Origin: an uncultured Planctomycetaceae bacterium
GTDB taxonomy: Bacteria; Planctomycetota; Phycisphaerae; SM23-33
Direction: 5' to 3'
DNA length: 64,000 bases
Assembly: GCA_964401835.1 (NCBI GenBank)
Contig: CAYNZP010000006.1
Span: 34,020-98,019, forward strand
The notes beneath the pieces are model-generated. The model was not told the DNA's origin. It worked only from the letters and a program-made list of their open reading frames with translations, and made no database searches. The first letter of the stretch is position 1. The number at the start of each line of letters is the position of its first letter. Shown piece after piece: positions 1-25,588 of the stretch. The position numbers and the translations under genes were made by a program.

Positions 1-2
1 AC

Positions 3-2558: not shown

Positions 2559-2578
2559 AAAACGAAAGGTTCATATAA

Positions 2579-3469: not shown

Positions 3470-3480
3470 ACAATCCTGTC

Positions 3481-6329: not shown

Positions 6330-6388
6330 CGATTTATCTCCATACTAAATGGCTATTGTTTGGAACCTGAATATGACAAATCACAATT

Positions 6389-7006: not shown

Positions 7007-7060
7007 GCAAATAGATTAACTTCTGGGCAAGTGGAGGTAAAAGAATTTCGGATTGCGGAT

Positions 7061-8484: not shown

Positions 8485-8502
8485 TTAAAGCAGCCTGCCG
8501 GG

Positions 8503-9390
8503 CTACTCAATATTCTGCACTTGTTCTTTGATTCGATCGATGGCCGTCTTGATTTCCACGACCTTCTGGGCTATGTCGGCGTCATTGGCCTTGGAAGCTA
8601 TGGTATTTGCCTCCCGCAGCATCTCCTGGGCAATGAAGTCCAGCTTCCTGCCAGCCGGCTCGGAACCGTCAATCGCCTTACGCGCCTGTTTTATGTGCCC
8701 TGCCAGGCGGGAGAGTTCTTCGGCTATATCGCAACGCTCGGCGAAAATCGTAACCTCCCTGACAAAGCTATCGTGGTCTATATCTATCTTGCCGGCCCCG
8801 GTAAGGTCCTTCACACGAGCTACCAGACGGTCTTTATAATCCACGACTACCTGAGGGGCCAGCTTGGCGATGTCCGAGAGGTTTTCTTCTATGACCTTAA
8901 GGTTTTTCACCAAGTCAACCTCGACAGCCTTGCCTTCCTTGATCCGCATTTCGACGAGCTTATCCAGGGTCTCATCGATAAGCTTCAAAAGGCCCGAGCG
9001 TGTCTTTTCAACCACCTCTTCCATCGGCGGCGGCTCACAAACACCGGGCAACTGCAACAGCGAACCAAGATCTATGCGTAAAGTAGGGTTGGCCTCTATT
9101 TCGAGCGGACGCAGTTGGTCGATATAATTGCCCAGAGCAACCGCGTTGACCCGGTAGGAAGCCCGCTGGTCGGAGAATTTCATCTTCACGCCCAAAGTTA
9201 CAGTTCCGCGATAAAGCTTGCTGCGAAGTACTTTTTCTATCTCGCCCTCAGCCGAGGAGAAAAACTCAGGCAGCCTGATGGAAGCCTTGAAATAGCGATT
9301 GTTGACAGAACGGGCCTCGACAGCATATTCGACACCGTCGACTTCTCCCTGTGCGCTTCCGTATCCTGTCATAGATCGCAGCATATTCAA
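8503..9390 (-). CDS. yicC: YicC family stress-induced protein
   Basis: N-terminus MLRSMTGYG and overall YicC N/C domain layout. Sits in a conserved yicC-gmk-rpoZ context. Confidence 0.85.
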   Translation of the reverse strand: MNMLRSMTGYGSAQGEVDGVEYAVEARSVNNRYFKASIRLPEFFSSAEGEIEKVLRSKLYRGTVTLGVKMKFSDQRASYRVNAVALGNYIDQLRPLEIEANPTLRIDLGSLLQLPGVCEPPPMEEVVEKTRSGLLKLIDETLDKLVEMRIKEGKAVEVDLVKNLKVIEENLSDIAKLAPQVVVDYKDRLVARVKDLTGAGKIDIDHDSFVREVTIFAERCDIAEELSRLAGHIKQARKAIDGSEPAGRKLDFIAQEMLREANTIASKANDADIAQKVVEIKTAIDRIKEQVQNIE

Positions 9391-9411
9391 TGTCCCTTTA
9401 AAAAGTTGGTA

Positions 9412-9960
9412 TTATTCGCCTGTTTCGTCCGTTGCTGGCGTTTCCATTTCCGCTTCCGGTTCAGACTCAGCCGGCTTGGTTTCCGGCTGGCCATAGTAGC
9501 CCTCTGCAACCACACTGGGTTTCCAGTTGGGACGGAATCCACGCGCCTTCAGTGTCGTACCTTCGGTTATGCGTATGGCACTTTCGTAGGCTTTCGATTC
9601 CTCGGTCGGCTCGCTACCATCGAGAGTATAGAAAATATCAGCCCGCGGCGTGCCGGACTCGACCGTCACGAAGGCTTCGTCATCTTCAACAGGGCCGGGG
9701 GTGGGGTTAAAAACCGGCGCCATTACCGTGCCCGGCTCGGGCCTGTATGTAATCGAGGTGAAAACCGCAAGAATCAGGAACATCGCGGTTAAGACTATCG
9801 TCACCCAGGTAAGTACGTCACCCGTGCGTGTACCAAATGCACTGCTGCCGGCGCCGCCGAAAGCTGCACCAAGGCCGCCGCCTCTGCCCTTCTGCAGCAG
9901 GACGACAAGTACCAGCAGAACACATGTAATGATGAACAAAGTAAATAATGCGATATCCAT
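9412..9960 (-). CDS. secG: preprotein translocase subunit SecG with a ~110-aa C-terminal extension
   Basis: N-terminal SecG core (LLQKGRGGGLGAAFGG...FGTRTGD..LT) with two TM helices. Conserved secG-tpiA adjacency. The C-terminal tail resembles a chitobiase/hexosaminidase C-terminal beta-sandwich (FYTLDGSEPTEESKAYESAIRITEGTTLKARGF). Confidence 0.8.
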   Translation of the reverse strand: MDIALFTLFIITCVLLVLVVLLQKGRGGGLGAAFGGAGSSAFGTRTGDVLTWVTIVLTAMFLILAVFTSITYRPEPGTVMAPVFNPTPGPVEDDEAFVTVESGTPRADIFYTLDGSEPTEESKAYESAIRITEGTTLKARGFRPNWKPSVVAEGYYGQPETKPAESEPEAEMETPATDETGE

Positions 9961-10000
9961 AACTCAAACTCTCTCTATTTCAAATTCTATACTTTCCATA

Positions 10001-10762
10001 CTAAAAAGCTTTCGCGATCCCCGCAAAGTCATCTACCTTCAGGCTCGCTCCGCCGACAAGTGCGCCGTCTATATCTTCCTGTGACAAAAGCTCAGACGCG
10101 TTTGAAGGCTTGACCGAACCGCCATACTGAATTCTAACGCTCTGGGCAAGTTCTTCGTCGTACATATCAGTCAAAAGTCCGCGAATCATCGCGTGGATTT
10201 CCTGTGCCTGCTCGGGAGTCGCGGTAAGACCCGTGCCGATTGCCCATACAGGTTCGTACGCGATTGTTACGTTCATTGCGTCAGCCTTGCTGATGCCTTC
10301 CATGCCGACCTGAACCTGACGCTTGACAACTTCGATTGTCTGATTGGCCTCGCGCTCTTCCAGAAGCTCGCCTACACAGAGGATCGGCTTCAGGCCGTCA
10401 GCCAACGCCTTGGCAACCTTGCGGTTGATGAGTTCATCGGTCTCGCCGATTACATGCCGACGCTCGCTGTGACCAAGGATGACGTAAGTGCAGCCGACGT
10501 CTTTAAGCATCGCGGACGAAAGCTCGCCGGTAAATGCGCCGTTGTCCTCATAAAACATGTTCTGTGCGCCGAGGGCGATTTTGCTACTGTCGAGAGCCTG
10601 ACTTACTGATGCCAGATAAACCGCAGGCGGGCAGACAGCCAGATCTACCTCGTCAGTAAAGCCAAGCTGCTCCACGATAGCCTTGGCCAGCGACACTGCC
10701 TCGTCGCAGGACGTATTCATCTTCCAATTACCGGCAACAAACAACTTACGTGACATCTCCAA
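10001..10762 (-). CDS. tpiA: triose-phosphate isomerase
   Basis: Motifs AGNWKMN, ILGHSERR and AYEPVWAIGTG. Confidence 0.92.
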   Translation of the reverse strand: MEMSRKLFVAGNWKMNTSCDEAVSLAKAIVEQLGFTDEVDLAVCPPAVYLASVSQALDSSKIALGAQNMFYEDNGAFTGELSSAMLKDVGCTYVILGHSERRHVIGETDELINRKVAKALADGLKPILCVGELLEEREANQTIEVVKRQVQVGMEGISKADAMNVTIAYEPVWAIGTGLTATPEQAQEIHAMIRGLLTDMYDEELAQSVRIQYGGSVKPSNASELLSQEDIDGALVGGASLKVDDFAGIAKAF

Positions 10763-10785
10763 AAATCCTTTCAGCTTACTTTTTC

Positions 10786-11886
10786 TTAAACGGGCTCTGT
10801 CGCCTTGGGAAAACTTCCCAGAACGTGCATCTCACCACAATGGCTTCTCGCCGCTTCGAGGGCCTTGACGAAATTCTCGTCTTCAAAATGGCCGTCAGCA
10901 TCGACGAAGAAGTAATATTCCCAGTCGCGCCTCTTTGAAGGACGGGTATCGATATTCGTCAGATTAATTCCGAAACTTGCGAATACATTCAGAACATCCA
11001 CCAAGGCGCCTGACTTATGGGCTGTTGTGAACATAATCGCCGTCTTGTCATTACCGGTCCGTTTGGCAGGGGCCGGTGAAATGACAAAGAACCGCGTCAT
11101 GTTTTTCGGATTGTCCTCGATATTCGCAAAGACGGTCTTGAGTTCGTAAAGCTCTCCGGCCAGGCTTGAACCAATGGCGGCCAGTCCCTCATCAGCCCCG
11201 GCAGCGGCCATCTCGGCAGCCTTTGATGTACTGGCGACCGGAATAAGCTCAGCCTGTTTGAAGCTGGTCGAGAGCCAGTTTCGGCACTGGGCGAAAACTT
11301 CCGGCTTGGACGCTATAGACTTAATTTCCTCGGGTGCGCAATTAGCCAGGAGGTTATGATGAATCTCTACGATTACCTCGGCGTAGATATAAACGTGGGC
11401 GCCAATGAAAGAATCCAGCGTGTCAACCACGCCGCCGCCGACGTTGTTCTCTATCGGCACGAGCCCCAGGTCGCAATGGCCGCGGGCAACCTCTTCGAAA
11501 ACCGCCCTGATATCAGCCAGGGGACGGTACTCGACGGAGGCTCCAAATTTTTTCTGAGCTGCCAAGTTGGAAAAGCTACCTTCCGGGCCCAGATAACCTA
11601 TGCGAAGCGGTTTTTCGAGTGCAAACGAACCGCTCATCAGTTCACGGTAAATCGCCTGGAGTGTTTTTTGTGGAAGTGGGCCTTTATTGAGCTTGGCAAT
11701 CCTCTCGAACACGGCATGTTCCCGGTCGGGCGCGTAGATGGGCGCGTCGTTGGCGAGTTTAGTCTTGCCAACTTCGACAACTACATCCGCCCTGGCGTTG
11801 AGAAGCTCGACTATTTTTGCGTCCAACTCGTCGATTTTCTTCCGCAACTGCCCGAGGTCTTTATTCTTGCCTTTCTTATCGCTCAT
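10786..11886 (-). CDS. pheA: bifunctional chorismate mutase / prephenate dehydratase (P-protein)
   Basis: N-terminal CM helix (LRKKIDELDAKIVELLNARA), a PDT domain (IGYLGPEGSFS) and a C-terminal ACT-like region. Confidence 0.85.
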   Translation of the reverse strand: MSDKKGKNKDLGQLRKKIDELDAKIVELLNARADVVVEVGKTKLANDAPIYAPDREHAVFERIAKLNKGPLPQKTLQAIYRELMSGSFALEKPLRIGYLGPEGSFSNLAAQKKFGASVEYRPLADIRAVFEEVARGHCDLGLVPIENNVGGGVVDTLDSFIGAHVYIYAEVIVEIHHNLLANCAPEEIKSIASKPEVFAQCRNWLSTSFKQAELIPVASTSKAAEMAAAGADEGLAAIGSSLAGELYELKTVFANIEDNPKNMTRFFVISPAPAKRTGNDKTAIMFTTAHKSGALVDVLNVFASFGINLTNIDTRPSKRRDWEYYFFVDADGHFEDENFVKALEAARSHCGEMHVLGSFPKATEPV

Positions 11887-12013
11887 CGTTTTAGCTTCTT
11901 ATTTCCTAAGCGCAGGGAATTCCCGCAAATATAGACGGGTCTTTGTACCCGCGGTTGGCCTTTTGGTCAAGGTTTTTTGCAGCCCGAATGGGGCAAAAAC
12001 AGACCTAAAACGC

Positions 12014-14263
12014 CTAGACAAGGCTTATCGGGTCGACATCGGTGATAATCTCAGCCGGAATATGGCCGGTCAATTCAGCCATCCGAGGTGATATTATCTG
12101 CTGTACAAGGCCCGCCCTGGCGGACATCAGCATTATCTGGAAACGGAATTGCTTGCGAATCTTCAGGACGCCAGCCGGCATCGGGCCCATCATTGAAACT
12201 CCATCGGGCAGTAACTTTCTGAGCCGATCAGCCAGCATCTTGGCCCCCTCCTCGGCCCGTTCGATCTTTTCGTGGCGGATGACAAACCTTATCATGCGGG
12301 CAAATGGCGGTAAGTGCATTTGCTTACGAGGATTAAGCTCATAATTGGCAAAGCCGTCATAATCGTGATTCAAGGCGAATTGTATAGCCGGCTCTTCCTC
12401 ATGAAGCGTCTGGACGACAACCTCTCCGGGCACCTGTGCCCGCCCTGCCCGCCCGGCAACCTGGACTATCAGCTGGAATGTCCGCTCAGCCGCCCGGAAA
12501 TCGGGTATCGACAGTGAAGTGTCAGCTGAAACCACGCCGACGAGTGACACTCGCGGGAAGTCCAACCCCTTGGCAACCATCTGCGTTCCGAGCAAGATAT
12601 CCAGCTTGCCCTGAGAAAATTCCTCGAAGACCTTTTTGAATTGTTTCGGCGAGGTCATCGTGTCGCTGTCCATCCGGGCTACTTTCGCCTCCGGAAATTT
12701 GCGGTCAAGCTCATCCTCTATCCGCTGTATTCCCATGCCAAACAGCAGCAGCTTTCCTTTGCAGGCCGGGCAGTAATCCAGCAGAGTCTGCGTATGCTGG
12801 CAGTAGTGGCACATCGCCAACTGCGTCGCCTGGTGGAAAACCATCATCCGCGTGCAATGTTCGCACACCATCTCCCACTTGCACTTGGGGCAGAACACAT
12901 AGCTGGCGTAGCCGCGGCGGTTCATCAGCAGGATAATCTGCTCGCTACGATCCAGCGCGGCAGCCATCTTTTGCGTAAGCGTCCTGCCGATAAGTTCGAT
13001 CTTGCCCCGCTGGAGTTCCCTGCGAAGGTGCACTATCTGGAGCTTGGGCATCTCCAGGCCGCGGACACGTTTGGGCAGCCGCAGCATTTCGTATTTGTCG
13101 CTCTTGACATTTTGCAGCGATTCCAGCGAAGGCGTAGCCGAGCCAAGTACAATCGGCACGTCCGCAAGGGCTGCGCGTTTGACCGCGACATCTCTGCCGT
13201 GGTATCGCGGTGTGGTGTCCTGCTTGTAGGTCGGTTCGTGTTCCTCATCGACGATAATCAGGCCGAGTTTTCGTGTCGGCGCGAATATCGCACTTCTCGG
13301 GCCTACCACAACGCTTGCTCCCCCGCCGAGTATCTGCTGGTAATAGAAAGCCCGCTGTGCGTCGGTCAGACCACTGTGAAGCACCGCCACTCGAGGCAGC
13401 CGTTGTATGAGTCGTTCGAGTGTCTGGGTCGTCAGGGCGATTTCCGGCACGAGCAGAATTGTCTGTTTGCCGGCTGCAATCATTTTACGTATCGCACGAA
13501 TGTAAACTTCTGTTTTTCCGCTGCCGGTTACCCCATAAAGAAGTGATGCGGAAAAGCCGCCGCTGAGTTTCCCATCAAGTTCGGCAAGGACCTTTTGCTG
13601 GTCGCTATTAAGCTCGAATGAATCGCCCCCATCCTCATCGCTAAGTTCTGGAAGCGTTACAGGGTGGGTTTCCGTGCGGACAAGCTCTCTGCCGGAGAGG
13701 CGGCTGAAACTGTCACGCGATGCACCACTGTGCGAAAGCAGCTGTTCAAGAGTAAGCGGCTCGATTCCCTGTTTGCGGGCCTCGTAAAGCTCATCGAGAA
13801 TCTTTTTTTGCCGCAAACCAAGCCTCGCAGGCCAATCTTTGCGATTACTATCCAGAAATACGACGGTCTGATTTTTCGGGCCATGCCTGCCGACTGCCGA
13901 TGGGATCATAGCTGCCAGCGTCATTCCAGGCGGACTGATGTAATACCGGCTAATCCACTCGCCAAGTTCGAACAGCTGCGAATCGAGCTGAGCTTCCCTG
14001 TCGATTACCTCGCTGACAACTTTGAGCTTATGCCTGCCCGCCCGCCGGAGTGTATCTACGACAAAACCGAGCGTCTTGCGATTTGACCTGCCGAAAGGAA
14101 CGCGGACTCTCGCACCGACCTGTGGCTCGCCAAGTGCGTCAGGCCAAGCGTAGTCGAAGCTCTCCCAGACATTCGCAGCAACTGCTACCCCCACCACCCG
14201 CGCTTGTGAGGCCGGCTGGGACGCAGGAACATTCGAGTCCTTGTCTTCAAAAAGCACTCCCAT
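12014..14263 (-). CDS. priA: primosomal protein N' (replication restart helicase)
   Basis: Walker A GVTGSGKTEVY, DEEH box IVDEEHE, and a Cys-rich zinc-binding insertion (CPKCKWEMVCEHC...CHYCQ...CPACKG). Confidence 0.9.
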   Translation of the reverse strand: MGVLFEDKDSNVPASQPASQARVVGVAVAANVWESFDYAWPDALGEPQVGARVRVPFGRSNRKTLGFVVDTLRRAGRHKLKVVSEVIDREAQLDSQLFELGEWISRYYISPPGMTLAAMIPSAVGRHGPKNQTVVFLDSNRKDWPARLGLRQKKILDELYEARKQGIEPLTLEQLLSHSGASRDSFSRLSGRELVRTETHPVTLPELSDEDGGDSFELNSDQQKVLAELDGKLSGGFSASLLYGVTGSGKTEVYIRAIRKMIAAGKQTILLVPEIALTTQTLERLIQRLPRVAVLHSGLTDAQRAFYYQQILGGGASVVVGPRSAIFAPTRKLGLIIVDEEHEPTYKQDTTPRYHGRDVAVKRAALADVPIVLGSATPSLESLQNVKSDKYEMLRLPKRVRGLEMPKLQIVHLRRELQRGKIELIGRTLTQKMAAALDRSEQIILLMNRRGYASYVFCPKCKWEMVCEHCTRMMVFHQATQLAMCHYCQHTQTLLDYCPACKGKLLLFGMGIQRIEDELDRKFPEAKVARMDSDTMTSPKQFKKVFEEFSQGKLDILLGTQMVAKGLDFPRVSLVGVVSADTSLSIPDFRAAERTFQLIVQVAGRAGRAQVPGEVVVQTLHEEEPAIQFALNHDYDGFANYELNPRKQMHLPPFARMIRFVIRHEKIERAEEGAKMLADRLRKLLPDGVSMMGPMPAGVLKIRKQFRFQIMLMSARAGLVQQIISPRMAELTGHIPAEIITDVDPISLV

Positions 14264-14401
14264 GGATGCATAGTAATACAGAGCAGCAAAATTGCAAACA
14301 CGGCTCTGGCAAAGACTCGTCCCAAAAGCCGATAACCGCTGTTGCTATTCACATCTATCGAGGATAATCTTTATTGAGCCCCTGACAGGTCTTCCCGTGG
14401 T

Positions 14402-14650
14402 CGCGACGCTTGATTTTTTGGTCGCAGACAAGGAACGAGAAGGATAAGATGCCGAAGCATCATTGACTTTCGAGTGACGATGTATGCGGCCAAAAGGGCA
14501 TGCGTCCCTTCGCGTTGCAGCAAAAATCGGCGTCTACATTGTTGCGGCTCCTCACCATACCATCAAGGTATGGTGTCGTCGCCGACGCCTTGTATCCACT
14601 CGATTTTTGTTGCAACGCGGCTCACGCGAAGTCCTGTCAGGGGCTCTTGA
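14402..14650 (+). repeat. conserved ~250-nt intergenic element, copy A (putative structured RNA / 5'-leader element); its paralogue lies at 25589-25841
   Basis: ~80% nucleotide identity to copy B over ~250 nt. Contains a perfect hairpin CACCATACC-ATCAA-GGTATGGTG. The differences between copies are compensatory, as detailed in the findings. Confidence 0.6.
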
Positions 14651-14688
14651 GCACTGCATAACAGACACGGATGTAAGGAGAAGTTGAA

Positions 14689-15183
14689 ATGGCAGAAAAC
14701 ATAACGGGAAAACCGACAGGCCAGGAACCCCCTATCGAGGGCAGCAAGATACTGGTCGTTGACGACAACGCACAGAATCTCGAGCTAATCGTCGCTTATC
14801 TAGATACCATTGATTGCAAGATTTCCACCGCTGTCGACGGCGTCGAGGCTCTGGACAAAGTTCAAGCCGAGCAACCAGACCTTATCCTGCTTGATATCAT
14901 GATGCCTCGCATGAGCGGTTTTGAGGTTTGCCGCAAGCTTAAATCAGACCCGGCCACGCGGGATATCCCGATAATAATGGTCACTGCTCTGAACGAACTT
15001 GGCGATATCGAGCGAGGTGTCGAAAGCGGCACGGACGATTTTATTTCCAAGCCGGTAAATCGTCTCGAACTGCTTACACGCGTAAAGAGCCTGCTTCGCG
15101 TTCGCCACCTCAAGAGTGAACTCGACCGTACGCTCGCCTACCTCAATAGTGTTGAAAGCGAAAGCCAGCCATCAACCAACTGA
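14689..15183 (+). CDS. stand-alone CheY-like response regulator receiver protein
   Basis: ILVVDDN ... DLILLDIMMP ... KP receiver motifs. Strong SD AAGGAG 8 nt upstream. Confidence 0.8.
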   Translation: MAENITGKPTGQEPPIEGSKILVVDDNAQNLELIVAYLDTIDCKISTAVDGVEALDKVQAEQPDLILLDIMMPRMSGFEVCRKLKSDPATRDIPIIMVTALNELGDIERGVESGTDDFISKPVNRLELLTRVKSLLRVRHLKSELDRTLAYLNSVESESQPSTN

Positions 15184-15198
15184 TTTGGAGCAGCTCAT

Positions 15199-17925
15199 AT
15201 GAAACCCGGATTTTTTTTTGCGGCAATTCTAATCGCCTTCCTCGTTTTCGCCCCGCTATGCCTCGCTGATGCCCAGCCCTCAACCAAGCCGGCATCACTA
15301 GCCGTAGCAGAGACGCTCGTTTCTCAGCCGGGCCTGGTCGTAGCGAAACTGGAAAATGGGCTGACCGTGATTGTAAAACGCTCAGCCGGCACTGGAGTCG
15401 TTACTGTCCGAGGTTATGTGCGGGCTGGCAGCATTTTCGAAGATAAATGGCTGGGTTGCGGTGTAAGCCATCTGCTCGAGCACCTTGTCGCCGAAGGCGC
15501 CGAGCACGACGGCCAAGGCCCTACTGCTGATCAAGCAAAGAATGCGTCCTCGCGAGTTGCACAAATTGGCGGTCAGTCAAACGCCTATACATCGCTGAGC
15601 TATACCTGCTATTACATCTCCGCCGCTGCCGGAAAAACCGACGATTGCGTTGCGCTGGTGGCAGACTGGCTGGCCAGGCCGGAGATAACGAAAGAGGCTT
15701 TCGAGAGAGAACACGGGGTCGTGCAGCGCGAACTCGAGATGCGAAAGAACGAGCCCTCCCGACAAATATGGCAGGCCAACATGGCCAACGCCTTTGCCGG
15801 TCATCCCGCCGAAGTTCCGATCATCGGCTATCAAAGCCCCCTTTCAAAGCTTACACACGAAGACGTACTGGCTTACCACAAGAAAATGTACATCCCGCAG
15901 AATATGATCTTCTGCGTCGTCGGCGATATTGACCCTCGAAAAGTTTTGGAAAAGACCCGGCAGGAATTTGCAGGCATGGAACCGGGAAGAGTTCCCAGTC
16001 ATTCTCTGCCACAAGTTCCACCAATTTCCGGCGTCAAAAGAGCCCTGCGTCAAAGTCCAGCCATCAGTGAAATTATCGGGCGGATTAATTTCCGCACCAT
16101 CCCCCTTTTACATGAAGACCTGTATGCACTCGACGTGCTCTCGTACGTCCTGTCTGAAGGCAAATCCAGCCGCCTTTTCCGCAAAATACAGCGGGAAAAT
16201 AAACTGGTAACATCCATTAGCTCAGGTTCATGGACACCTGACTGGGGAAATGGGATATTTGTTGTTAGCTTCCGCGCAAAGCCCGAAAACGCAGACGCAG
16301 CAGAGGCTGCCATCATTGATGAGCTGAAAAAGATAGCCGCCGATGGCGTAACGGCTGATGAGCTCAAGCGGGCGAAGAGACAAAAAGTCGCCGACTTTGT
16401 TTATTCTCAACAGACAATCGAATCCCAGGCCCAAACACTCGCAGGCGATTTTCTTAGCACCGGCGATATAAACTTCAGCCAGGATTATACAGACAAAATC
16501 CAGGCTGTAACCGCCGAGCAGGTGCAAAAGGCTGCCAGGAAATATTTCACATTCGACAAGATGGCTGTAACGCTTATGGTGCCCAAGGCCGAAGCTCCTG
16601 CAACTCAGCCGACGACTCAAGCAGGCGAAAAAAACGAGGAAATCTCATTTGAGCTTCCAAATGGGCTCAGGGTCATCCTCCAGCCTACCAATGGCGGGCT
16701 GGTTTCCATGACCTTTGCGACCAAGGGTGGGCTGCTTCTGGAAGACGAGCGAACAAACGGCTTCGGCACATTGATGACCGCACTGAGTACCAAAGGCGCT
16801 GGCGAACTCTCGGCCGAGCAGATTGCAGAATTCTTCGACTCTGCCGGCGGGCAGATTGTGGCCAACTGCGGTAACAACACCTTCTACTGGCAGGCGACGG
16901 TCCTGGAAGATAGCTCCAGCCGCGCGTTGGATATCTTTGCAGACGTAATAATCCGGCCCACGCTTAGTGAAAAGGAACTGGAAATATTGCGGCCGGTGCA
17001 GCTGGCGAAGATAAGGATGGTCGATGAGAACTGGCAGTCGCAGTTGCAAAAGTTCTTCCGCAGCAACTTCTTTAATAATCCACAATACAAACTTCTTCCG
17101 GTCGGCAGCGAAGAGGTTGTCGCTTCGGCCACTGCCGAGCAGATAAAACAGTGGCACAAATCCATCCATGGTGGTGCAAGTGTACTGACAGTTTACGGGA
17201 AGTTTAATGCGGATGAAGCTCGCAAAAAGATAGAAACACTTTTCGAGGGCCTTCCCGCTGGGATGACAAAGCTGTCCGGACCGATTGAACCAAAAACTGT
17301 TCTGGTAGACGAAACTACAGTTCTCAAGACAAAAAATACCGTTGCGGGTGTGATAGTGGCCGTGCCTGGCATGACCCTGGATAACCTTGAGGACCGATTC
17401 GCGATCGACGTGTTGGATACAATAATAAGCGGCTATCATCTGCCCGATGGCTGGCTGCACAACGAACTACGCGGAAAGCAGCTGGTATATGTCGTCCACG
17501 CATATAACTGGATGGGGCTACTTCCAGGCGCATTTATTACCTATGCGGCCGGCCAGCCGGAAAACGTGGAAAAAGTCGTTGAGATAATCAAAGACAATCT
17601 CAGCAAGGCCTCCCAATACACGCCAACCCAGCAAGAGATTGACCGGGCGGTTAATGTGATTCTGACGGCTGAGCTTCTGGGCAACCAGGAGCTTTCGGCC
17701 AGAAGCCTTTCAGCGGCACTCGATGAGCTTTATTACGGTTTTAGTTTAAGAAGCAAACTCGAACAATATTATCGCAAGGTTACGCCGGCTGACGTCGCAC
17801 GTGTCGCGAAAAAATATCTTTCCGGGCCTTACGTTACAATCGTAACGAGCCCGCAGAATTTTGAGACGGAAGATTTGGAAGACAAAAATTCACAGGGGCT
17901 TCAAAAAGACGGCTCTTCAGAGTAA
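15199..17925 (+). CDS. secreted M16-family zinc peptidase (pitrilysin/insulinase-like, duplicated two-half architecture)
   Basis: Signal peptide. Inverted zinc-binding motif HLLEH in GVSHLLEHLVAEG. Two ~450-aa halves, each with the M16 fold (YGKFNADEARKKIETLFEGL in the second half). Confidence 0.85.
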   Translation: MKPGFFFAAILIAFLVFAPLCLADAQPSTKPASLAVAETLVSQPGLVVAKLENGLTVIVKRSAGTGVVTVRGYVRAGSIFEDKWLGCGVSHLLEHLVAEGAEHDGQGPTADQAKNASSRVAQIGGQSNAYTSLSYTCYYISAAAGKTDDCVALVADWLARPEITKEAFEREHGVVQRELEMRKNEPSRQIWQANMANAFAGHPAEVPIIGYQSPLSKLTHEDVLAYHKKMYIPQNMIFCVVGDIDPRKVLEKTRQEFAGMEPGRVPSHSLPQVPPISGVKRALRQSPAISEIIGRINFRTIPLLHEDLYALDVLSYVLSEGKSSRLFRKIQRENKLVTSISSGSWTPDWGNGIFVVSFRAKPENADAAEAAIIDELKKIAADGVTADELKRAKRQKVADFVYSQQTIESQAQTLAGDFLSTGDINFSQDYTDKIQAVTAEQVQKAARKYFTFDKMAVTLMVPKAEAPATQPTTQAGEKNEEISFELPNGLRVILQPTNGGLVSMTFATKGGLLLEDERTNGFGTLMTALSTKGAGELSAEQIAEFFDSAGGQIVANCGNNTFYWQATVLEDSSSRALDIFADVIIRPTLSEKELEILRPVQLAKIRMVDENWQSQLQKFFRSNFFNNPQYKLLPVGSEEVVASATAEQIKQWHKSIHGGASVLTVYGKFNADEARKKIETLFEGLPAGMTKLSGPIEPKTVLVDETTVLKTKNTVAGVIVAVPGMTLDNLEDRFAIDVLDTIISGYHLPDGWLHNELRGKQLVYVVHAYNWMGLLPGAFITYAAGQPENVEKVVEIIKDNLSKASQYTPTQQEIDRAVNVILTAELLGNQELSARSLSAALDELYYGFSLRSKLEQYYRKVTPADVARVAKKYLSGPYVTIVTSPQNFETEDLEDKNSQGLQKDGSSE

Positions 17926-17959
17926 GTTAGTTCAAAAGTCACCAGACAGGAGTAAAGAA

Positions 17960-18589
17960 GTGTCAGGAAACGAAGATATTCTTAATAAGTCCGTACGAGA
18001 ATTCGCCGCGGCTACCGCAGCCAAGAGCCCCACTCCAGGTGGCGGAAGTGTCGCAGGTGCAGTAGGTTCTCTCTCGGCTGCACTTGGTGAAATGTCGTTG
18101 AACTTCACGCGCGGCAAAAAGAAATACGCCGAGCACGAGGAATATTACGCACAGCTGGCCACCCGGCTGGAAAACGCCCGTAAGATGTTCGAAAACCTGG
18201 TCGCTGACGATATCCAGGCATATAAACTCTATCAGGAAGCGCAGAAGCAGGAAGACGGCCCAGACAAGCAGCAGGCCGTCCAGCTCGCCACAGCAGCGGC
18301 TATCGACGTTCCGCGCGAAACGACTAAGCTTTCGCTTGCCGTGCTGAAAGACCTCGAACAATTTGCCGACAAGTGTAACCCATGGCTGATTACCGACCTG
18401 ATGGCATCTGCGGCACTTGCCGTGGCAACAATTCAGCTTTCTGACTACAACGTCTGCGTAAACATACCGAGTGTTTCAGACAAGTCCGCTGCCGAAGAAA
18501 TCCTCCAAAGCTCCAAGGCCGACCTTGCAAAGGCGAAAGAGCTTTTCGAAATTATCGAAAAGGCCGGCTTTAAGATTCTCGGTTACTAA
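17960..18589 (+). CDS. FTCD_C-like cyclodeaminase/cyclohydrolase-domain protein
   Basis: PTPGGGSVAGAVGSLSAALGEMSLNFTRGKKKY matches the formiminotransferase-cyclodeaminase C-terminal (FTCD_C) signature. GTG start at 17960 with AGGAG 8 nt upstream. The ORF-track start at 17861 overlaps the M16 gene. Confidence 0.7.
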   Translation: MSGNEDILNKSVREFAAATAAKSPTPGGGSVAGAVGSLSAALGEMSLNFTRGKKKYAEHEEYYAQLATRLENARKMFENLVADDIQAYKLYQEAQKQEDGPDKQQAVQLATAAAIDVPRETTKLSLAVLKDLEQFADKCNPWLITDLMASAALAVATIQLSDYNVCVNIPSVSDKSAAEEILQSSKADLAKAKELFEIIEKAGFKILGY

Positions 18590-18597
18590 AAACTAAA

Positions 18598-19104
18598 ATG
18601 GCAAAAGAATATAGCGTTAACAAAACGGCTGGGCAGTGTTGTAACTGCGAAAAGCAGCTCGAAGTCGGTGTGGAATTCGTCGCCACGCTGAAAGAAGCGT
18701 CGGAAGAATTTCTTCGCGAAGACTTCTGCCTCTCTTGCTGGGAAAATCACAAAGACAACTGTCAGCCAGGCATGCTTGGCTTTTGGCACAGTAAAGTTGC
18801 ACAGCCGCAGGAAAAGAAAAAGTTATTTGTCGATAACGAGCTTTTAATAAACTTTTTTGAGCGATTGGATGGCTCGGAAGAACCGGCTAAGATTAATTTC
18901 CGTTTCGTTCTGGCTTTGATATTGATGCGAAAAAAATTGCTGGTTTATGAAGGCAGCTCAAAAATGGATGATGGCCGAGACACCTGGACGATGCACCTCA
19001 AGGGCAGCGAGGAAAAACACCAGGTTATCGACCCGAAGATGGACGATGAGAAAATTTCGCAGGTGAGCGAACAACTGAGCGAAATTCTGGAAGGTGAGTT
19101 TTGA
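18598..19104 (+). CDS. hypothetical Cys-rich cytoplasmic protein (CxxC ... CxxC zinc-ribbon-like N-terminus)
   Basis: QCCNCEK ... CLSCWENH. No recognisable family. Lies 9 nt after the FTCD_C gene. Confidence 0.5.
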   Translation: MAKEYSVNKTAGQCCNCEKQLEVGVEFVATLKEASEEFLREDFCLSCWENHKDNCQPGMLGFWHSKVAQPQEKKKLFVDNELLINFFERLDGSEEPAKINFRFVLALILMRKKLLVYEGSSKMDDGRDTWTMHLKGSEEKHQVIDPKMDDEKISQVSEQLSEILEGEF

Positions 19105-20030
19105 TAATCATTCGCAACATCGCGATATCAGCCCTGCTAATTCTGGCGGCGGTTTTCACCGGCTGCGAGTCGACCTGTCCGCCGGCAGAGACCATTATTT
19201 CCCGTCCGCAACTCGTCACGGAATACAACGCCAACGCAGCAGCCGTGCCACGTCTTTGGGCAAGAGCAAAGGTCAAGGTAAGCCTTAAAGGTTTAAGCTG
19301 GGGTTCGACAAGCCCCCTCTCGCCGCCTAACGGCCTGATGCTTTTGGCTAAAGGCAACGACAAACAAGGACCGCACGATTTCCTGCTCAAAGCCGGCGAA
19401 ATGGCTTCTATAGATTTATTCCGCCTGGGCAGCAATACAGAACCCGGCATCTACTATCTCCAATATCAACTTGGCGAGCAGGGCCAAGCCTGGTGGGGCT
19501 GGAATCATCTGGCCGGGGCGCCCGGAGTAGATATTCCAATCGACCCAAATCAGTTACTCGAAGTTTTGGGGATTTTCGAACTGCCAGACGACTTTACCAA
19601 ACTGCCCACAGTCGAAGTGACCATGAGCTGCAATCCGTGTGCTTATGTGCTGACCTATCTCGACACCCAGCCGATAAGCGGCAACATTGGTTTTAAGCGA
19701 GAGGTTTATATCAATTGGGACACAGCAAAACCTCGTCGGCCTTTCATGGTTAACTTCTTCGGCCCGGACGGCAGGAGAATCATGACCGCAAAGTTAAAAG
19801 ATTATAAACCGATCGACACGACCGGAATGGACAATCCGCCGGCAAGCCCGCCAATAATGCCGACCGATATCGAAATAGCTTGGCCGGAAAAGAAGACTTC
19901 CGTCCATATCATGCTATCCGAAATGACCACCGAAGAAAAATGGATGCGAGAGGCCTGCCAATTCAAGCCCGGCAACCTGCCACAGGTGCATGTAGACAGA
20001 GCCTTAATGGACGGAGGCGCAGCTAAGTGA
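19101..20030 (+). CDS. hypothetical lipoprotein
   Basis: Lipobox LLILAAVFTGC. TTG start overlaps the upstream stop (TTGA). No recognisable family. Confidence 0.5.
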   Translation: MIIIRNIAISALLILAAVFTGCESTCPPAETIISRPQLVTEYNANAAAVPRLWARAKVKVSLKGLSWGSTSPLSPPNGLMLLAKGNDKQGPHDFLLKAGEMASIDLFRLGSNTEPGIYYLQYQLGEQGQAWWGWNHLAGAPGVDIPIDPNQLLEVLGIFELPDDFTKLPTVEVTMSCNPCAYVLTYLDTQPISGNIGFKREVYINWDTAKPRRPFMVNFFGPDGRRIMTAKLKDYKPIDTTGMDNPPASPPIMPTDIEIAWPEKKTSVHIMLSEMTTEEKWMREACQFKPGNLPQVHVDRALMDGGAAK

Positions 20031-21646
20031 AAAACCAACGCCTCCTGATTACATTGGCCATACTGGGCATTCTTTTAACTATCCACAGCAGCGCAATTGC
20101 CGGACCGAATTCTCTTATGATCTCAGGCGAAGAAAAAGGTCTGTGGTTAGTCCGCAACAATCTGGCCCAAAATAATTTTGACGTTGTATTCAGGCCGACT
20201 GGCGAAGACTGGAAATGGATAGACAAAGGCCGAACAGGCCGACCGTCAGCCATCACGGCAATTGCTGGCCAGTTGCATGTCCTGCTCGAACCGGCAGGTT
20301 ATCTGATATTTGATCCGAGCTCAAAAAATAAGCCCACACCTTCTCTGACGCCAAATGCGCCGAATTGGCCCGCCGGTGTTGGTGCGTTGGCAGTGTGTGA
20401 CGCAAGCGGTCTGAATGGAAACCAAAACCTTGCTCTTTTGGCTATAGCAGCAATGGAAGAAAAGGTTGATACGGACCAGGTTCGGCAAGTGAAGCTGGGG
20501 GTTTTTGAGTATTCAGACGCCCAATGGCAATTTTTAACACAACTCGACGGCGTCACACTTCAAGCGGATAGTAAAATTCGGGCCGCGACCTTCAAGGGCA
20601 AGCTTTACGTGGCAATTTCTCCTTCCGAGAAAGATAAAAACCGCCTCTTGGTTTGGGATAAAGAAAAATGGCTGGACAAGGACCTGCCCGCCCAAGCCGC
20701 CACGGCAAAAGTGCTGGCCACGATGAACCTCAACGACGACTTGATCATCGCCCTGGCAAATGAGATTTCTCCCGACAAATATAAATTCTCACTCGCTGCC
20801 CTCAGCGACAGCGAAAAATTTATCCTCAAGCCGGTATTCTCTGACGATACAGTGCCGGAGCGAACTTTCGATTTTCCACCACTGGCGGGGAGACTCTCAA
20901 AAAGAATAGCGTTCCTGTGGCAACAGGAAGAAATTTTGGAACTAGCATCATGCGACCTTAACGGCCAAATGGTGATTCCATCGGAAGTGAACATCTTCAA
21001 GAAACCTCCGCTCAAGGGCGGCGGCGAAAAGATATTTGAATACTTCATGTTCGGCCTGATCATTGCGGTTTTTGTCCCGATGTTCGTCATTCGGCCGCGC
21101 AGACCTATTAAACCCCTCACGCTTCCTGAGACAATGAAACCAGCGCACCTTCTCAAAAGGCTCGCGGCAGCTATTATCGACCTGATTCCATTTTTAATCC
21201 TGATGAGCTTAATTTTCCTGTTTTCCCTGCCACCCATACCCGAAGGTGAGTTCGAATACCTTAAGCTTTTTGTTAAGCTTTTATTCACTCAACAAGCAGG
21301 TCCCGCAAGCGCCGCCTATGCGAAAATCGTGGGCATGGTGCTTTATGCGGTTTACTGCATAATCACGGAAAAACTCTTTAATGCCACGCCGGGTAAGATG
21401 CTGCTAAAGCTGCGAGTCGTGGCAGATGAGGGAAACCGGCCTCACCTGAGAGAGATTCTGCTGCGAAATTTTGTCAAGCTGATCGAGCTTTTTCAAATCA
21501 CCTTGCTGCCATTACTGGCTGCTTTTGTAATTATTACACGAAAGCATCAGCGACTCGGTGATATGGTAGCCAGGACGGTTGTTGTCGAAGAGAATAAGAC
21601 CCCTCCCAAAAAACCTCAAAAAAACGACGACAAAGCAAATTCGTAG
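20027..21646 (+). CDS. secreted/periplasmic domain protein with a C-terminal RDD-family membrane domain
   Basis: N-terminal signal peptide and a ~330-aa soluble region. The C-terminus has 3 TM helices with the RDD signature (LKRLAAAIIDLIPFLIL ... RLGDMVARTVVV). GTG start overlaps the upstream stop (GTGA). Confidence 0.6.
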   Translation: MKNQRLLITLAILGILLTIHSSAIAGPNSLMISGEEKGLWLVRNNLAQNNFDVVFRPTGEDWKWIDKGRTGRPSAITAIAGQLHVLLEPAGYLIFDPSSKNKPTPSLTPNAPNWPAGVGALAVCDASGLNGNQNLALLAIAAMEEKVDTDQVRQVKLGVFEYSDAQWQFLTQLDGVTLQADSKIRAATFKGKLYVAISPSEKDKNRLLVWDKEKWLDKDLPAQAATAKVLATMNLNDDLIIALANEISPDKYKFSLAALSDSEKFILKPVFSDDTVPERTFDFPPLAGRLSKRIAFLWQQEEILELASCDLNGQMVIPSEVNIFKKPPLKGGGEKIFEYFMFGLIIAVFVPMFVIRPRRPIKPLTLPETMKPAHLLKRLAAAIIDLIPFLILMSLIFLFSLPPIPEGEFEYLKLFVKLLFTQQAGPASAAYAKIVGMVLYAVYCIITEKLFNATPGKMLLKLRVVADEGNRPHLREILLRNFVKLIELFQITLLPLLAAFVIITRKHQRLGDMVARTVVVEENKTPPKKPQKNDDKANS

Positions 21647-22248
21647 AATCACCAGAAGACCCTTAACTAGAACCTGTTAAGCACACGCCATAAAACCACC
21701 CTGGAATTTTTTGCATAAAAAAGAGGGCGGCTGCCAAGCCAATGCGCGGGGGGAGACGCATCGACAAAGGCGAACCGCCCTCAATATCATGCATAAAAGA
21801 CACTTATACACTTAGAAAATCAAAGTGTCACAATCAGACCGGCCAACCGGAAAGACAGGAAACAAACAGGTGTAACTTATTGCAAACAATGGACTTTCCT
21901 GCTTAATCAAGCCTGAGTTTTGCTTGATCGGCGCTTCTAAAATTAAATAGGGCACCGTTGTGTAGCCGCGTCGAGGCCCGCCAAGGGCCCCCCCCATGGC
22001 ACACACAGACGGTGCCCAATATTGTTACATTGGGTACACCATTCCACGGCGGTCCGGGGAAGCTGATACTTGGCGGTTTTGACGCGGACGCCAAACAAAA
22101 AACCTTAACTCTATTCACTTGTAGGACACATACTCTATCAACCAACACAGAAAGGTCAAGGCTGTTGATGTTAATCCACAAAATTCTTTTGGGGAAAGTT
22201 TGATGGTTTGAAAGAACACGAATCTGACAGAATAAAGATTTTGCCACC

Positions 22249-22281
22249 CAAAATGGCCCGCAGTCTAAAGAGCTGGGGGCC
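22249..22281 (-). terminator. putative intrinsic terminator downstream of ppiB
   Basis: On the minus strand, a GGCCC...GGGCC stem is followed by a short U run (AUUUU). It lies just past the ppiB stop. Confidence 0.4.
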
Positions 22282-22317
22282 ATCGTGAAAGTGTCTGTAA
22301 TTTCTTAATCGAGACCT

Positions 22318-22752
22318 TTATTCCTCAGTTACAGTAACTTTTTCCATAACATCGCCCTGCTCGATAGTATCGACGACATCCTTGCCTTCCAAAACCTTAC
22401 CGAACACGGCATGTTTACCGTCAAGCCAGTCGCATACAACATGGGTGATAAAGAACTGCGAGCCATTTGTGTTCGGGCCTGCGTTGGCCATCGAAAGTAC
22501 ACCCGGGCCATCGTGTTTCAGGTCGGGATGAAATTCATCTTCAAATTTATAGCCAGGCCCGCCGGTTCCGTCACCTTTGGGACATCCGCCCTGGATCATA
22601 AAATCGGGGATAACGCGATGAAACTTCAGGCCGTCATAGAAGCCCTCGCCGGCCAACTTCTCAAAATTCGCACAGGTCTTCGGTGCTTTGTCGTCATGTA
22701 GCTGAATGCGTATGTTGCCTTTTGGAGTAACTATGGTTGCGACTTTCATCAA
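22318..22752 (-). CDS. ppiB: peptidyl-prolyl cis-trans isomerase, cyclophilin type
   Basis: Motifs [12 protein letters not shown] and [11 protein letters not shown]. Confidence 0.9.
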
Positions 22753-22884
22753 TTTTCCTTTCGCAAAACTTTTTCAAAATTTTTGCCAAAAAACGCCTTT
22801 CGGTCATTATCCGACTTTCTAGTTATTTTGAATCATACACTTTTCCAACTGGAAATGTCCAATAAGAGACTTAAGATTTAATCC

Positions 22885-23529
22885 ATGGCAACAAATTTAT
22901 GGGAATGGATAAACTCCGACACCGGCCTATTGGCCCGCATATTGACAGGTGTTGTCATATTCTCTGCATTTGCGATTTGGGATATTGCAAAAAACGGCAA
23001 AAACGCCCAGCGTTGGAGGGAGTATATATTCCTTCTTAGTGCCGTTGCGCTAGCTCTGGGTTATGGTATCCTGAACGATCAGGTTACAGTTTCGATCTCC
23101 TGGGAATATTTTCTTTTTGGTAAGGGCTTGGCTGACAAAATCGGCTACGAAATTCCTCCAGATTTCTCCATTTTGCGACTGGAGGCTGTCAAGATCGGAA
23201 TGAAGGCAACCTGGTGGGTAGGATTAATATTGGGTGTAGCCGTTTTGTTTGCCAATAACCCCAGAAGGAAATGTCTGAGGCTTCCTTATCGAAGTCTTTA
23301 CAGCCTTTTACCTTTACCAATTTTAATTGCGACATTATGGGCTGTAGTGCTTGGACTAGCCGGCTGGTTTGGAGCTTATGACGGTTTTATCCAAGCAGAA
23401 TTCATGCGCCCAAGGCACTTCGCCTGTGTATGGGGAATACATATTGGCGGTTATATCGGGGGTTTATTAGGCGGAATTACGACGGTATGGATAATCATTC
23501 GAAAACGATCTGCAAAGGCCTGTAAATAA
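22885..23529 (+). CDS. hypothetical integral membrane protein
   Basis: Multiple hydrophobic helices. No recognisable family. Confidence 0.5.
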   Translation: MATNLWEWINSDTGLLARILTGVVIFSAFAIWDIAKNGKNAQRWREYIFLLSAVALALGYGILNDQVTVSISWEYFLFGKGLADKIGYEIPPDFSILRLEAVKIGMKATWWVGLILGVAVLFANNPRRKCLRLPYRSLYSLLPLPILIATLWAVVLGLAGWFGAYDGFIQAEFMRPRHFACVWGIHIGGYIGGLLGGITTVWIIIRKRSAKACK

Positions 23530-24996: not shown

Positions 24997-25557
24997 ATGA
25001 GTATAAAAGCAATCGAACTTCGTCGCGGGATGGCAGTTAATTACAAGGACGGAATCTGGGTCTGCCAGGAAAACGAAAAGGTCGCAAAGGGCAAGGGTCA
25101 GAGCTATCAGTCAATTTCCCTGAAGAATATCAAGACTGGCCAACTAATAAACGAAAGATTCCGCACGACAGCGGATTTTGAACAGGCAATCGTTGACCGC
25201 AAGCAGATGGAATACCTCTATTCCGACGGTTCGAATCATATTGTCATGGACAACGAATCATATGAGCAGTTCGAGCTGCCTGCCGAGTTAATTGGCGATA
25301 AGTCTGTCTACCTGACCGAAAATATCCAGATTGAGGTAACTTTCGTGGAAGGTCAGGCAGTCTCAGCAGAGTTACCCAATACTGTCGAGTTGGAAGTCGA
25401 AGATACGCCGCCCCAGGTCAAAGGGGCTACAGCTACAAACCAGCTTAAAGACGCCATCTGTGTCGGCGGTGCCAGGATAAAGGTTCCACCTTTTGTCGAA
25501 AATAGTGAAAAGGTCAAAGTCGACACGCGAACTGGCGATTATCTCGGCCGAGCCTGA
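24997..25557 (+). CDS. efp: elongation factor P
   Basis: KGKGQSYQSISLKNIKTGQ in the EF-P KOW domain. SD AAGGAGA upstream. Confidence 0.9.
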   Translation: MSIKAIELRRGMAVNYKDGIWVCQENEKVAKGKGQSYQSISLKNIKTGQLINERFRTTADFEQAIVDRKQMEYLYSDGSNHIVMDNESYEQFELPAELIGDKSVYLTENIQIEVTFVEGQAVSAELPNTVELEVEDTPPQVKGATATNQLKDAICVGGARIKVPPFVENSEKVKVDTRTGDYLGRA

Positions 25558-25588
25558 TTTTGAACCCCTAACAAAAACCTCCCGCGGA

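Follow-up and report, generated by a model that had tools for sequence, protein, structure and literature searches.

The cluster described here, in the 64,000-nucleotide stretch of DNA that was analysed (the window), comprises genes for a stand-alone response regulator (RR), a secreted M16B zinc peptidase, a protein of the FTCD_C family, a small cytoplasmic protein (gene 4), a lipoprotein (gene 5) and an RDD-domain membrane protein (gene 6). With moderate confidence, we interpret it as a genuine, conserved operon of the Phycisphaerae core genome that is made of separable modules, and not as one dedicated 'peptidase plus FTCD_C' system.

Layout of the six-gene cluster

The six genes lie on the + strand in the order RR (14689-15183), M16 peptidase (15199-17925), FTCD_C protein (17960-18589), gene 4 (18598-19104), gene 5 (19101-20030) and gene 6 (20027-21646), with successive gaps of 15, 34, 8, -4 and -4 nt. 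The last two junctions are overlaps of 4 nt (TTGA between genes 4 and 5, GTGA between genes 5 and 6), and the same gene calls are present in public assemblies for the cluster genes. The tightly spaced, same-strand cluster proposed in the initial annotation was therefore borne out, also by the order kept in relatives (see below), except that the interval between the FTCD_C gene and the next gene is 8 nt rather than 9. Around the cluster, the window consists of housekeeping core genome, including pdxJ, dapA, ftsK, priA, efp, kdsB, pyrG, clpB, fabF and pgk.

No convincing + strand terminator was found between the cluster genes, terminator-like sites numbering 13 against 12.4 expected. Sigma-70-like matches before the FTCD_C gene (17861-17889) and before gene 4 (18570-18599) were weak and of background frequency in a scan run without a Planctomycetota promoter model. 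Features by which operons are recognized, namely a common strand, short or overlapping junctions and an order kept across genomes, were found here, and we infer that the six genes are co-transcribed.

A structured element of about 270 nt (14376-14646, + strand) separates priA from the RR gene. It comprises inverted repeats that form a basal 24-bp stem and two long hairpins, with a minimum free energy as RNA of -153 kcal/mol. The structure noted earlier upstream of the operon is thus real (z -10.1), but it did not qualify as an operon leader: a second copy is present in the window (25550-25847; 12 compensatory pairs, 0 broken), and a covariance model of the element gave no match in related loci totalling 1.2 Mb, the relatives lacking it at this place. 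It had no match in Rfam. The element is a dispersed repeat.

Conservation of the cluster in Phycisphaerae

Conservation was surveyed in 83 loci, 77 of which were informative for the FTCD_C position upstream of gene 4. The order RR-M16-FTCD_C-gene 4-gene 5-RDD recurred in dozens of species-level genomes, which takes the cluster beyond chance, and all six genes kept this order in a Tepidisphaeraceae locus (L078) at 34-39% protein identity. The check on neighbourhood conservation that had been proposed for this cluster was thus passed widely. Furthermore, the boundaries from RR to RDD were fixed while the flanking genes varied between loci. Between the window and L003, synteny also covered the block priA-pheA-tpiA-secG-yicC-gmk, and part of the conservation of the cluster may therefore reflect general synteny.

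In 52 of the 77 informative loci, the gene immediately before gene 4 was FTCD_C. At least 4.5 kb of upstream sequence was available for 47 of these FTCD_C-positive loci, of which 43 contained RR and 36 the M16 peptidase; seven had RR without the peptidase and four had neither. Downstream sequence was sufficient in 46 FTCD_C-positive loci, and gene 5 and the RDD gene were each present in 45 of them. The adjacency of FTCD_C and genes 4-6 was kept where RR and M16 were missing (L017, L037, L045 and L049), and in a rearranged locus (L018) the FTCD_C gene is convergent and sits just downstream of the RDD gene, still adjoining the trio. Gene 4 had no FTCD_C gene immediately before it in 25 of the 77 loci, mostly of the Sedimentisphaerales type, in which a helix-hairpin-helix protein fills the FTCD_C position. 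Homologues of gene 5 and of the RDD gene were detectable in 8 of the 21 such loci with enough downstream sequence, and in several loci of the Sedimentisphaerales type (L056, L068, L064 and L066), which lack FTCD_C, gene 4 is followed by an RDD or lipoprotein gene that could be detected. FTCD_C is not an obligatory partner of gene 4, and genes 4-6 are the oldest part of the cluster.

The spacing also differed along the cluster. The median estimated gap was -4 nt both between genes 4 and 5 and between gene 5 and the RDD gene (about 60 loci), about 20 nt between FTCD_C and gene 4, and about 98 nt between RR and M16. Gaps of more than 150 nt were observed between RR and M16 in 9 of 34 loci and between M16 and FTCD_C in 8 of 40.

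The response regulator

RR (164 aa) is a stand-alone receiver domain with no output domain. Its sole Pfam match is Response_reg (E 1.3e-29), and the acidic pocket (D25/D26), the phospho-acceptor D69, T99 and K121 are all present, which confirms the receiver-only assignment made previously. With 63-84% identity across loci, it is better conserved than any other protein encoded in the cluster. Its best solved relative is the first receiver domain (Rec1) of Caulobacter PleD (114.6 bits, residues 19-145), from which it differs by the lack of a GGDEF output domain; DivK is likewise a stand-alone single-domain regulator, and the phospho-acceptor residues are all present in RR. Neither the large ORFs of the window nor the neighbours of the operon included a cognate kinase.

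The M16 peptidase has a single catalytic half and is facultative

The fused peptidase (908 aa) contains two Peptidase_M16 and two M16_C domains (Pfam), and its N-terminus reads as a signal peptide (MKPGFFFAAILIAFLVFAPLCLADA). The N-terminal half carries the motif H91-L-L-E-H95 (H91, E94 and H95) and a downstream E171. No HxxEH motif is present in the second half, and the enzyme therefore has a single catalytic half. A secreted protein of 908 aa with an HLLEH site and two complete halves had been described; size, signal peptide and doubled domains stand, but HLLEH is confined to the N-terminal half. When compared with PDB relatives, the N-terminal half matched the active subunit 3amj_C (1.9e-48) and the C-terminal half matched the zinc-dependent peptidase chains 5hxk_A and 7v4y_B. 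Further matches were the inactive subunit 3amj_B, which aligned best over query residues 105-459, and PqqL (6ofs).

The peptidase resembles Sph2681/Sph2682 of Sphingomonas sp. A1 (3amj), which is secreted and combines one active HxxEH...E half with an inactive one, and E. coli PqqL (6ofs), a secreted, fused protein of about 900 aa with active and inactive halves. Unlike these, it follows a stand-alone RR and is dispensable to its cluster: it was absent from 11 of the 47 informative FTCD_C-positive loci, the cluster being otherwise intact there. In L001 it is split into two genes, and in L002 a melibiase gene lies between it and FTCD_C. The M16 peptidase is thus facultative in the cluster.

The FTCD_C protein keeps the motifs of its enzyme family

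The third gene encodes a cytoplasmic protein of 209 aa that belongs to the cyclodeaminase/cyclohydrolase family. FTCD_C (PF04961) is its only Pfam domain (E 2.8e-42; 145 bits for a cut-off of 24.5) and the match runs from profile position 1 to 179 of 182. An AGGAG sequence 8 nt upstream speaks for the GTG start at 17960, as does the length of the homologues (202-232 aa, mostly 206-212), and public assemblies contain a called gene with precisely this 209-aa product. The FTCD_C-only protein with a GTG start and a good Shine-Dalgarno sequence was therefore correctly recognized. With the NCBIfam model for FchA (NF045657), the protein scored 105 bits, below the equivalog cut-off of 275. As judged from this score, it is a member of the family but not an FchA equivalog.

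Its PDB relatives are Thermotoga maritima TM1560 (1o5h; 1.2e-23), Methylobacterium extorquens FchA (7vg4; 2.5e-21) and the C-terminal domain of rat FTCD (1tt9; 2.3e-10). All have a similar length (about 210 aa) and the same Pfam domain nearly end to end, though the identity with the present protein is only about 30%. The motifs that recur in the solved members (PGGG loop, NxT.GKK, D..A(F/Y), VP, N..(S/T)D and NV..N) are all kept; in fuller form, the four proteins have in common PTPGGG, N(F/L)T.GKK(K)Y, D..A(F/Y), VP, N....(S/T)D and NV..N. The conserved positions correspond to F15, PGGG, AL, M45, T50, D84/A87/Y88, VP, N140/D146 and NVxxN. Across 35 clade members, almost all of these motifs show no or hardly any variation (N140 not being among the listed columns), and the mean column identity of the clade alignment is 71%. 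The retention of family-wide enzyme motifs argues for a normal folate enzyme over a novel role, and the protein looks like an ordinary, predicted folate enzyme. Its setting differs from that of its relatives, as it heads a zinc-ribbon/LolB-like/RDD trio and has no folD, fhs, ftcD or hut gene next to it. Folate, histidine-utilisation and purine genes (folD, fhs, formiminotransferase, hut) were not found in the cluster, its flanks or the scanned large ORFs of the window.

Genes 4, 5 and 6

Gene 4 encodes an uncharacterised cytoplasmic protein of 168 aa with four invariant cysteines (C14, C17, C44 and C47), which probably form a zinc ribbon, and an invariant motif, FRFVLALxLMRKKLLVYD. The fusions of gene 4 that were found join it to unrelated domains only.

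Gene 5 (TTG start) encodes a 309-aa lipoprotein. Its lipobox has the consensus L-x-G-C, in which C22 is invariant and G21 nearly invariant in 38 homologues. The predicted fold contains an open beta-barrel of the LolA/LolB superfamily. There was no Pfam match at E <= 0.01, the protein fell outside the LolB, LolA and DUF4292 profiles, 1 of the 38 homologues matched DUF4292 (E 0.46), and a PDB search gave no sequence match. From the model, we consider gene 5 to encode a putative LolB-like outer-membrane lipoprotein. It has no detectable sequence similarity to the LolB-like protein of P. gingivalis (9tpm, PMC13103446), Bacteroidota LolB (PMC11885536) or E. coli LolB (1iwm), is about 70-100 residues longer than these receptors and differs from them in the translational coupling of its gene to those for the zinc-ribbon and RDD proteins. 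Neither paper mentions Planctomycetota.

Gene 6 (GTG start) encodes a membrane protein of 539 aa with a C-terminal RDD domain (PF06271; residues 372-515, 5.8e-21, 75.7 bits for a cut-off of 24.1), in which R378, D385 and D512 do not vary among 20 orthologues. At the N-terminus, a signal peptide or anchor is followed by an extracytoplasmic domain of about 310 aa, for which we obtained only insignificant hints of a beta-propeller lectin, BamB or Kelch. These residues, one Arg and two Asp, are the conserved ones of the RDD family, to which the RDD Na+(Li+,K+)/H+ antiporter of Halobacillus andaensis (PMC5996927) also belongs; gene 6 differs from it by its extra N-domain. Contrary to the initial annotation, none of the downstream proteins is a recognized secretion component, gene 5 being LolB-like by predicted fold and gene 6 an RDD membrane protein.

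Discussion

In the modular interpretation, genes 4-6 form a first module, in which a four-cysteine protein of the cytoplasm is combined with a LolB-like lipoprotein of the outer membrane and an RDD protein of the inner membrane that has a large extracytoplasmic domain. Their translational coupling through 4-nt overlaps implies matched production, and they may act jointly in cell-envelope or lipoprotein handling. FTCD_C would be a second module, a cytoplasmic folate one-carbon enzyme with predicted activity as 5-formimino-THF cyclodeaminase or 5,10-methenyl-THF cyclohydrolase, which would have joined the head of the trio in one large subclade and be co-transcribed with it. No mechanistic coupling between FTCD_C and the trio would be necessary; by analogy, proteobacterial lolB is always beside ispE and hemA, i.e. 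unrelated genes (PMC13103446). The third module would consist of the PleD-Rec1-like RR, which presumably works through phosphorylation-dependent protein-protein contacts with its kinase encoded elsewhere, and of M16 as an optional periplasmic M16B clamshell, degrading or trimming small unfolded peptides.

We considered the possibility that FTCD_C, as a catalytic protein or a moonlighting adaptor, gene 4, the RDD protein and the LolB-like lipoprotein form one trans-envelope pathway controlled by RR. The adjacency of FTCD_C to the trio where RR and M16 are missing, its persistence after the rearrangement in L018 and the short gap to gene 4 speak against the modular interpretation and hint at functional linkage over passive co-location; the unusual constraint on the FTCD_C clade, its distinctness from FchA equivalogs and the lack of folate-pathway genes in the flanks and the scanned large ORFs of the window point in the same direction. 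Yet, gene 4 lacks a directly upstream FTCD_C in about a third of the informative loci, several of which keep the lipoprotein or RDD gene, a helix-hairpin-helix protein can take the FTCD_C position, the enzyme-family motifs of FTCD_C are all intact and no supporting fusion was found. An integrated pathway thus appears unlikely. That the six genes are mere neighbours in a slowly rearranging housekeeping region, with several promoters and no shared function, would be in line with the syntenic priA-gmk block, the sigma-70-like matches and the wide gaps that some loci show around M16. This is quite improbable, however, given the fixed boundaries of the cluster between differing flanks, the conserved overlaps in genes 4-6 and the survival of the gene order in L078.

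It had also been proposed that the peptidase processes a secreted substrate made or handled by the downstream proteins, in one maturation or export unit. The M16 gene is on the same strand as FTCD_C and close to it, is present in most informative loci, and shares an extracytoplasmic location with genes 5 and 6. M16B clamshell peptidases, however, usually break down a broad range of small peptides, and the cluster contains neither a small precursor-peptide gene nor a biosynthetic enzyme. Since the peptidase is facultative, as indicated by its absences, its split in L001 and the melibiase gene in L002, it is unlikely to be dedicated to a substrate linked with the downstream proteins, and we regard the proposal as a whole as very doubtful.

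Starting from the modular operon that we favour, a further step can be envisaged, which we consider decidedly improbable. Genes 4-6 could be an unrecognised Phycisphaerae machinery for outer-membrane lipoprotein insertion or envelope assembly, with FTCD_C and the PleD-like RR as its dedicated cytoplasmic partners. If this were true, the role of FTCD_C would extend beyond folate metabolism.

Organization of the cluster and its surroundings

The initial annotation had described a tightly spaced, one-strand group of six genes headed by a response regulator (RR), an M16 zinc peptidase and a formiminotransferase-cyclodeaminase C-terminal-like protein (FTCD_C). This was confirmed by the ORF listing and by Pfam/NCBIfam scans of the window, which place on the plus strand the RR gene (14689-15183; 164 aa, receiver domain only), the M16 gene (15199-17925; 908 aa, with two Peptidase_M16 and two M16_C matches), the FTCD_C gene (17960-18589; 209 aa, FTCD_C as sole domain), gene 4 (18598-19104; 168 aa) and gene 5 (19101-20030; 309 aa), neither assigned to a family, and gene 6 (20027-21646; 539 aa, with a C-terminal RDD domain). 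The first three junctions are 15, 34 and 8 nt long and the last two are 4-nt overlaps, TTGA and GTGA.

The cluster is preceded by a divergent priA and followed, after about 670 nt, by a convergent cyclophilin gene on the opposite strand. The intervening stretch (21647-22317) holds short unsupported ORFs only, with no convincing gene, tRNA or Rfam match; a permissive Rfam search covering 13500-23000 gave no relevant hit in this stretch or in the leader, and a tRNA scan of the window found none.

The remaining window carries core housekeeping genes (pdxJ, dapA, ftsK, yicC, pheA, priA, efp, kdsB, pyrG, xerC/D-like, clpB, fabF, ptsI, RNase E/G, accD and pgk). Neither folate genes nor a histidine kinase were seen among its large ORFs. 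The block at about 8500-14263 (minus strand) is syntenic with positions 1-7179 of the related locus L003 (gmk, yicC, a secG fusion, tpiA, pheA, priA). Two minus-strand ORFs had no Pfam match at E ≤ 1e-5, one of 1217 aa (35988-39641) and one of 326 aa (29067-30047), the latter adjoining a XerC/D-type integrase gene (30190-31185). Metagenome scaffolds of SAMN10231893 are identical to the window, and the named homologues come from Phycisphaerae or Planctomycetota MAGs.

Conservation and modularity of the cluster

A gene 4-anchored scan of a one-genome-per-species collection gave 267 encoding stretches, of which 80 loci were kept; loci L001, L002 and L003 were found by an FTCD_C-anchored look-up. 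Presence was counted by searching all 83 loci with the six window proteins (tblastn). Greedy ORF calling was kept out of the counts because it produced spurious antisense ORFs in GC-rich loci.

FTCD_C lies directly upstream of gene 4 in 52 of the 77 loci with at least 800 nt of upstream sequence. RR is present in 43 and M16 in 36 of the 47 FTCD_C-positive loci whose upstream sequence extends to 4.5 kb or more; seven have RR without M16 and four have neither, and in those lacking both that were checked the upstream genes are unrelated or unidentifiable. Where 3.5 kb or more of downstream sequence is available (46 FTCD_C-positive loci), genes 5 and 6 are each present in 45. The estimated median gaps across loci are -4 nt for both gene 4/gene 5 and gene 5/gene 6, about 20 nt for FTCD_C/gene 4, about 28 nt for M16/FTCD_C and about 98 nt for RR/M16.

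The comparison of neighbourhoods across genomes suggested in the initial annotation thus showed that the cluster order recurs, down to a Tepidisphaeraceae locus (L078) which keeps the complete order with M16, FTCD_C and gene 4 at 34-39% identity. L003 has the order priA<>RR-FTCD_C-gene 4-gene 5-RDD, without M16, and its cluster proteins are about 29-75% identical to those of the window (RDD about 29%, FTCD_C 61%, regulator 75%). In L002 a melibiase-family gene (L002:6398-7879) sits between M16 and FTCD_C (priA<>RR-M16-melibiase-FTCD_C-gene 4-gene 5-RDD). L001 has RR, M16, FTCD_C and gene 4, with RDD further downstream, past extra genes; its M16 is split into two genes encoding separate active and inactive subunits (L001:5125-7927). 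In L018, FTCD_C (L018:9861-10445) has switched strand and moved past the RDD gene, remaining adjacent to the cluster. Loci of the Sedimentisphaerales type have gene 4 without FTCD_C, RR or M16; its upstream neighbours there encode a GH10-like and a helix-hairpin-helix (ComEA-like) protein, and gene 4 is followed by a lipoprotein gene whose product has a GC...CP...EYxAN N-terminus and often by an RDD gene.

From the recurring order and the locus counts we conclude that the cluster is real and conserved, and also modular. Its most widespread part is gene 4, joined by the lipoprotein and RDD genes wherever these can be detected; FTCD_C is a subclade-wide addition and M16 is optional.

The regulator, the peptidase and the FTCD_C protein

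The regulator has the acidic pocket D25/D26, the phospho-acceptor D69, and T99 and K121, and no other cluster protein is as conserved (63-84% identity across species; 61-72% for PriA). Its closest solved relative is the first receiver domain of PleD (114.6 bits for that domain), a likeness much greater for the cluster regulator than for other receivers. No kinase gene was found among the operon's neighbours or the large ORFs of the window.

The M16 peptidase has a signal-peptide-like N-terminus and the zinc-site residues H91LLEH95 and E171. Of the two complete halves initially ascribed to it, both are matched by the domain models, but the second is without HxxEH, which makes the protein an M16B enzyme in which an active and an inactive half are fused. 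Among solved structures it is closest to the Sphingomonas A1 heterodimer and to PqqL.

The GTG start proposed for the FTCD_C gene held up: it is backed by an AGGAG 8 nt upstream and by the lengths of the homologues (202-232 aa, mostly 206-212), and the identical 209-aa product is also a called gene in public assemblies. The distance to the next gene is 8 nt rather than the 9 nt first reported. The protein matches Thermotoga TM1560 (1o5h; 1.2e-23), Methylobacterium extorquens FchA (7vg4; 2.5e-21) and rat FTCD (1tt9; 2.3e-10). All positions common to these three structures are kept (F15, PGGG, A41-L42, M45, T50, D84/A87/Y88, V117-P118, N140/D146 and N164-V165..N168), and almost all are invariant or nearly so among 35 clade members, for which mean column identity is 71%. 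The score against the FchA equivalog model, 105 bits, is far below the cut-off of 275. The simplest reading of these sequence comparisons is that FTCD_C would be a functional folate cyclodeaminase/cyclohydrolase of unassigned specificity.

Genes 4 to 6

Gene 4 encodes four invariant cysteines and an invariant helical motif, FRFVLALxLMRKKLLVYD. Its family comprises 1438 homologues, and 2203 clusters at 50% identity. Sequence and profile searches gave no Pfam, NCBIfam or PDB match, and the AF2 model (pLDDT 78.8) matched no known or solved fold (best Foldseek E value against the PDB, 0.12). The protein is probably an uncharacterised zinc-ribbon protein. Fusions in longer members (a xylose-isomerase-like TIM barrel and a DUF58 fragment) were judged unrelated and uninformative.

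Gene 5 encodes a protein with an invariant lipobox cysteine and a confidently predicted structure (pLDDT 92.3), by which it is a LolB-like lipoprotein and a candidate LolB analogue. No similarity to LolA, LolB or DUF4292 was found at the sequence level. Profile comparison with the Sedimentisphaerales lipoproteins gave weak scores only; their common GC...CP...EYxAN N-terminus suggests that they may be distant homologues of gene 5. For a long time LolB was considered an exclusively beta- and gamma-proteobacterial protein, and its discovery in Bacteroidota is recent (PMC11885536, PMC13103446); the new publications describing LolB beyond the Proteobacteria make no mention of Planctomycetota.

Gene 6 keeps the RDD signature (R378/D385/D512) and additionally encodes an extracytoplasmic N-terminal domain of unknown fold, whose matches to propeller lectins, BamB and Kelch were all insignificant. 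The sole characterised RDD member that we found in the literature is a cation/proton antiporter (PMC5996927).

The structured element upstream of the regulator gene

A structured element (14376-14646, plus strand) lies between priA and the regulator gene and folds much more stably than shuffled controls (z of -10.1). A second copy, 78% identical, lies between efp and kdsB (25550-25847, plus strand); the two differ by 12 compensatory pairs and no broken pair. A covariance model scores about 340 bits on the plus strand and about 70 bits on the minus strand. This family of about 280 nt has no Rfam match. An apical-hairpin scan of metagenomes revealed three more copies, one full length and two ended by a contig edge (L084:1022-1318; L088:977-1219, minus strand; L093:1-128), on contigs without homologues of the operon genes, efp or kdsB. 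In a four-sequence alignment, 28 of 74 pairs are compensatory.

We considered the element as a leader of the operon and rejected this, given the copy between efp and kdsB and its absence from related loci by sequence and covariance-model searches (the latter over 1.2 Mb, 83 loci). It belongs to a dispersed structured repeat family and is not a conserved operon leader; candidate identities are a novel small RNA or a MITE-like repeat.

Discussion

The evidence best fits an operon that belongs to the conserved core genome and was put together from modules. Genes 4 to 6 would form an envelope-related, translationally coupled trio including the candidate LolB analogue, to the head of which a normal folate enzyme, FTCD_C, would have been recruited in one large subclade, with a stand-alone regulator upstream accompanied by an optional, putatively periplasmic M16B peptidase. 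Proteobacterial lolB adjoins ispE and hemA (PMC13103446), a precedent for a LolB-type gene next to functionally unrelated housekeeping genes. The main rival is a genuine functional link between FTCD_C and the trio. It stays alive because FTCD_C persists beside the trio without RR and M16, and despite the L018 rearrangement. The housekeeping block is syntenic even with the diverged L003; long-range gene order is therefore generally well kept in this lineage, which calls for caution in inferring function from adjacency. Least supported is the proposal of the initial annotation that M16 processes a secreted substrate of the downstream proteins, because many clusters that are otherwise intact lack M16 or have it split or displaced. 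Taken as a whole, the observation of the initial annotation holds and its interpretation is supported in part.

RR, M16 and FTCD_C belong to known families, and their arrangement is undescribed and unexplained; literature on the context of stand-alone FTCD_C, on COG3404, and on RDD or LolB in Planctomycetes yielded nothing about this cluster. Since these three genes come from well-known families, the operon head itself is unsurprising; more promising leads are offered by the LolB-like lipoprotein and by the uncharacterised family of gene 4. The cluster map distinguishes an old trio present throughout the class from FTCD_C, the regulator and the optional M16, which were added later, and it places the gene 4 family (about 2,200 clusters) in a genetic context. 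The predicted LolB-fold lipoprotein, found across Phycisphaerae, would be a concrete candidate for outer-membrane lipoprotein placement in these planctomycetes.
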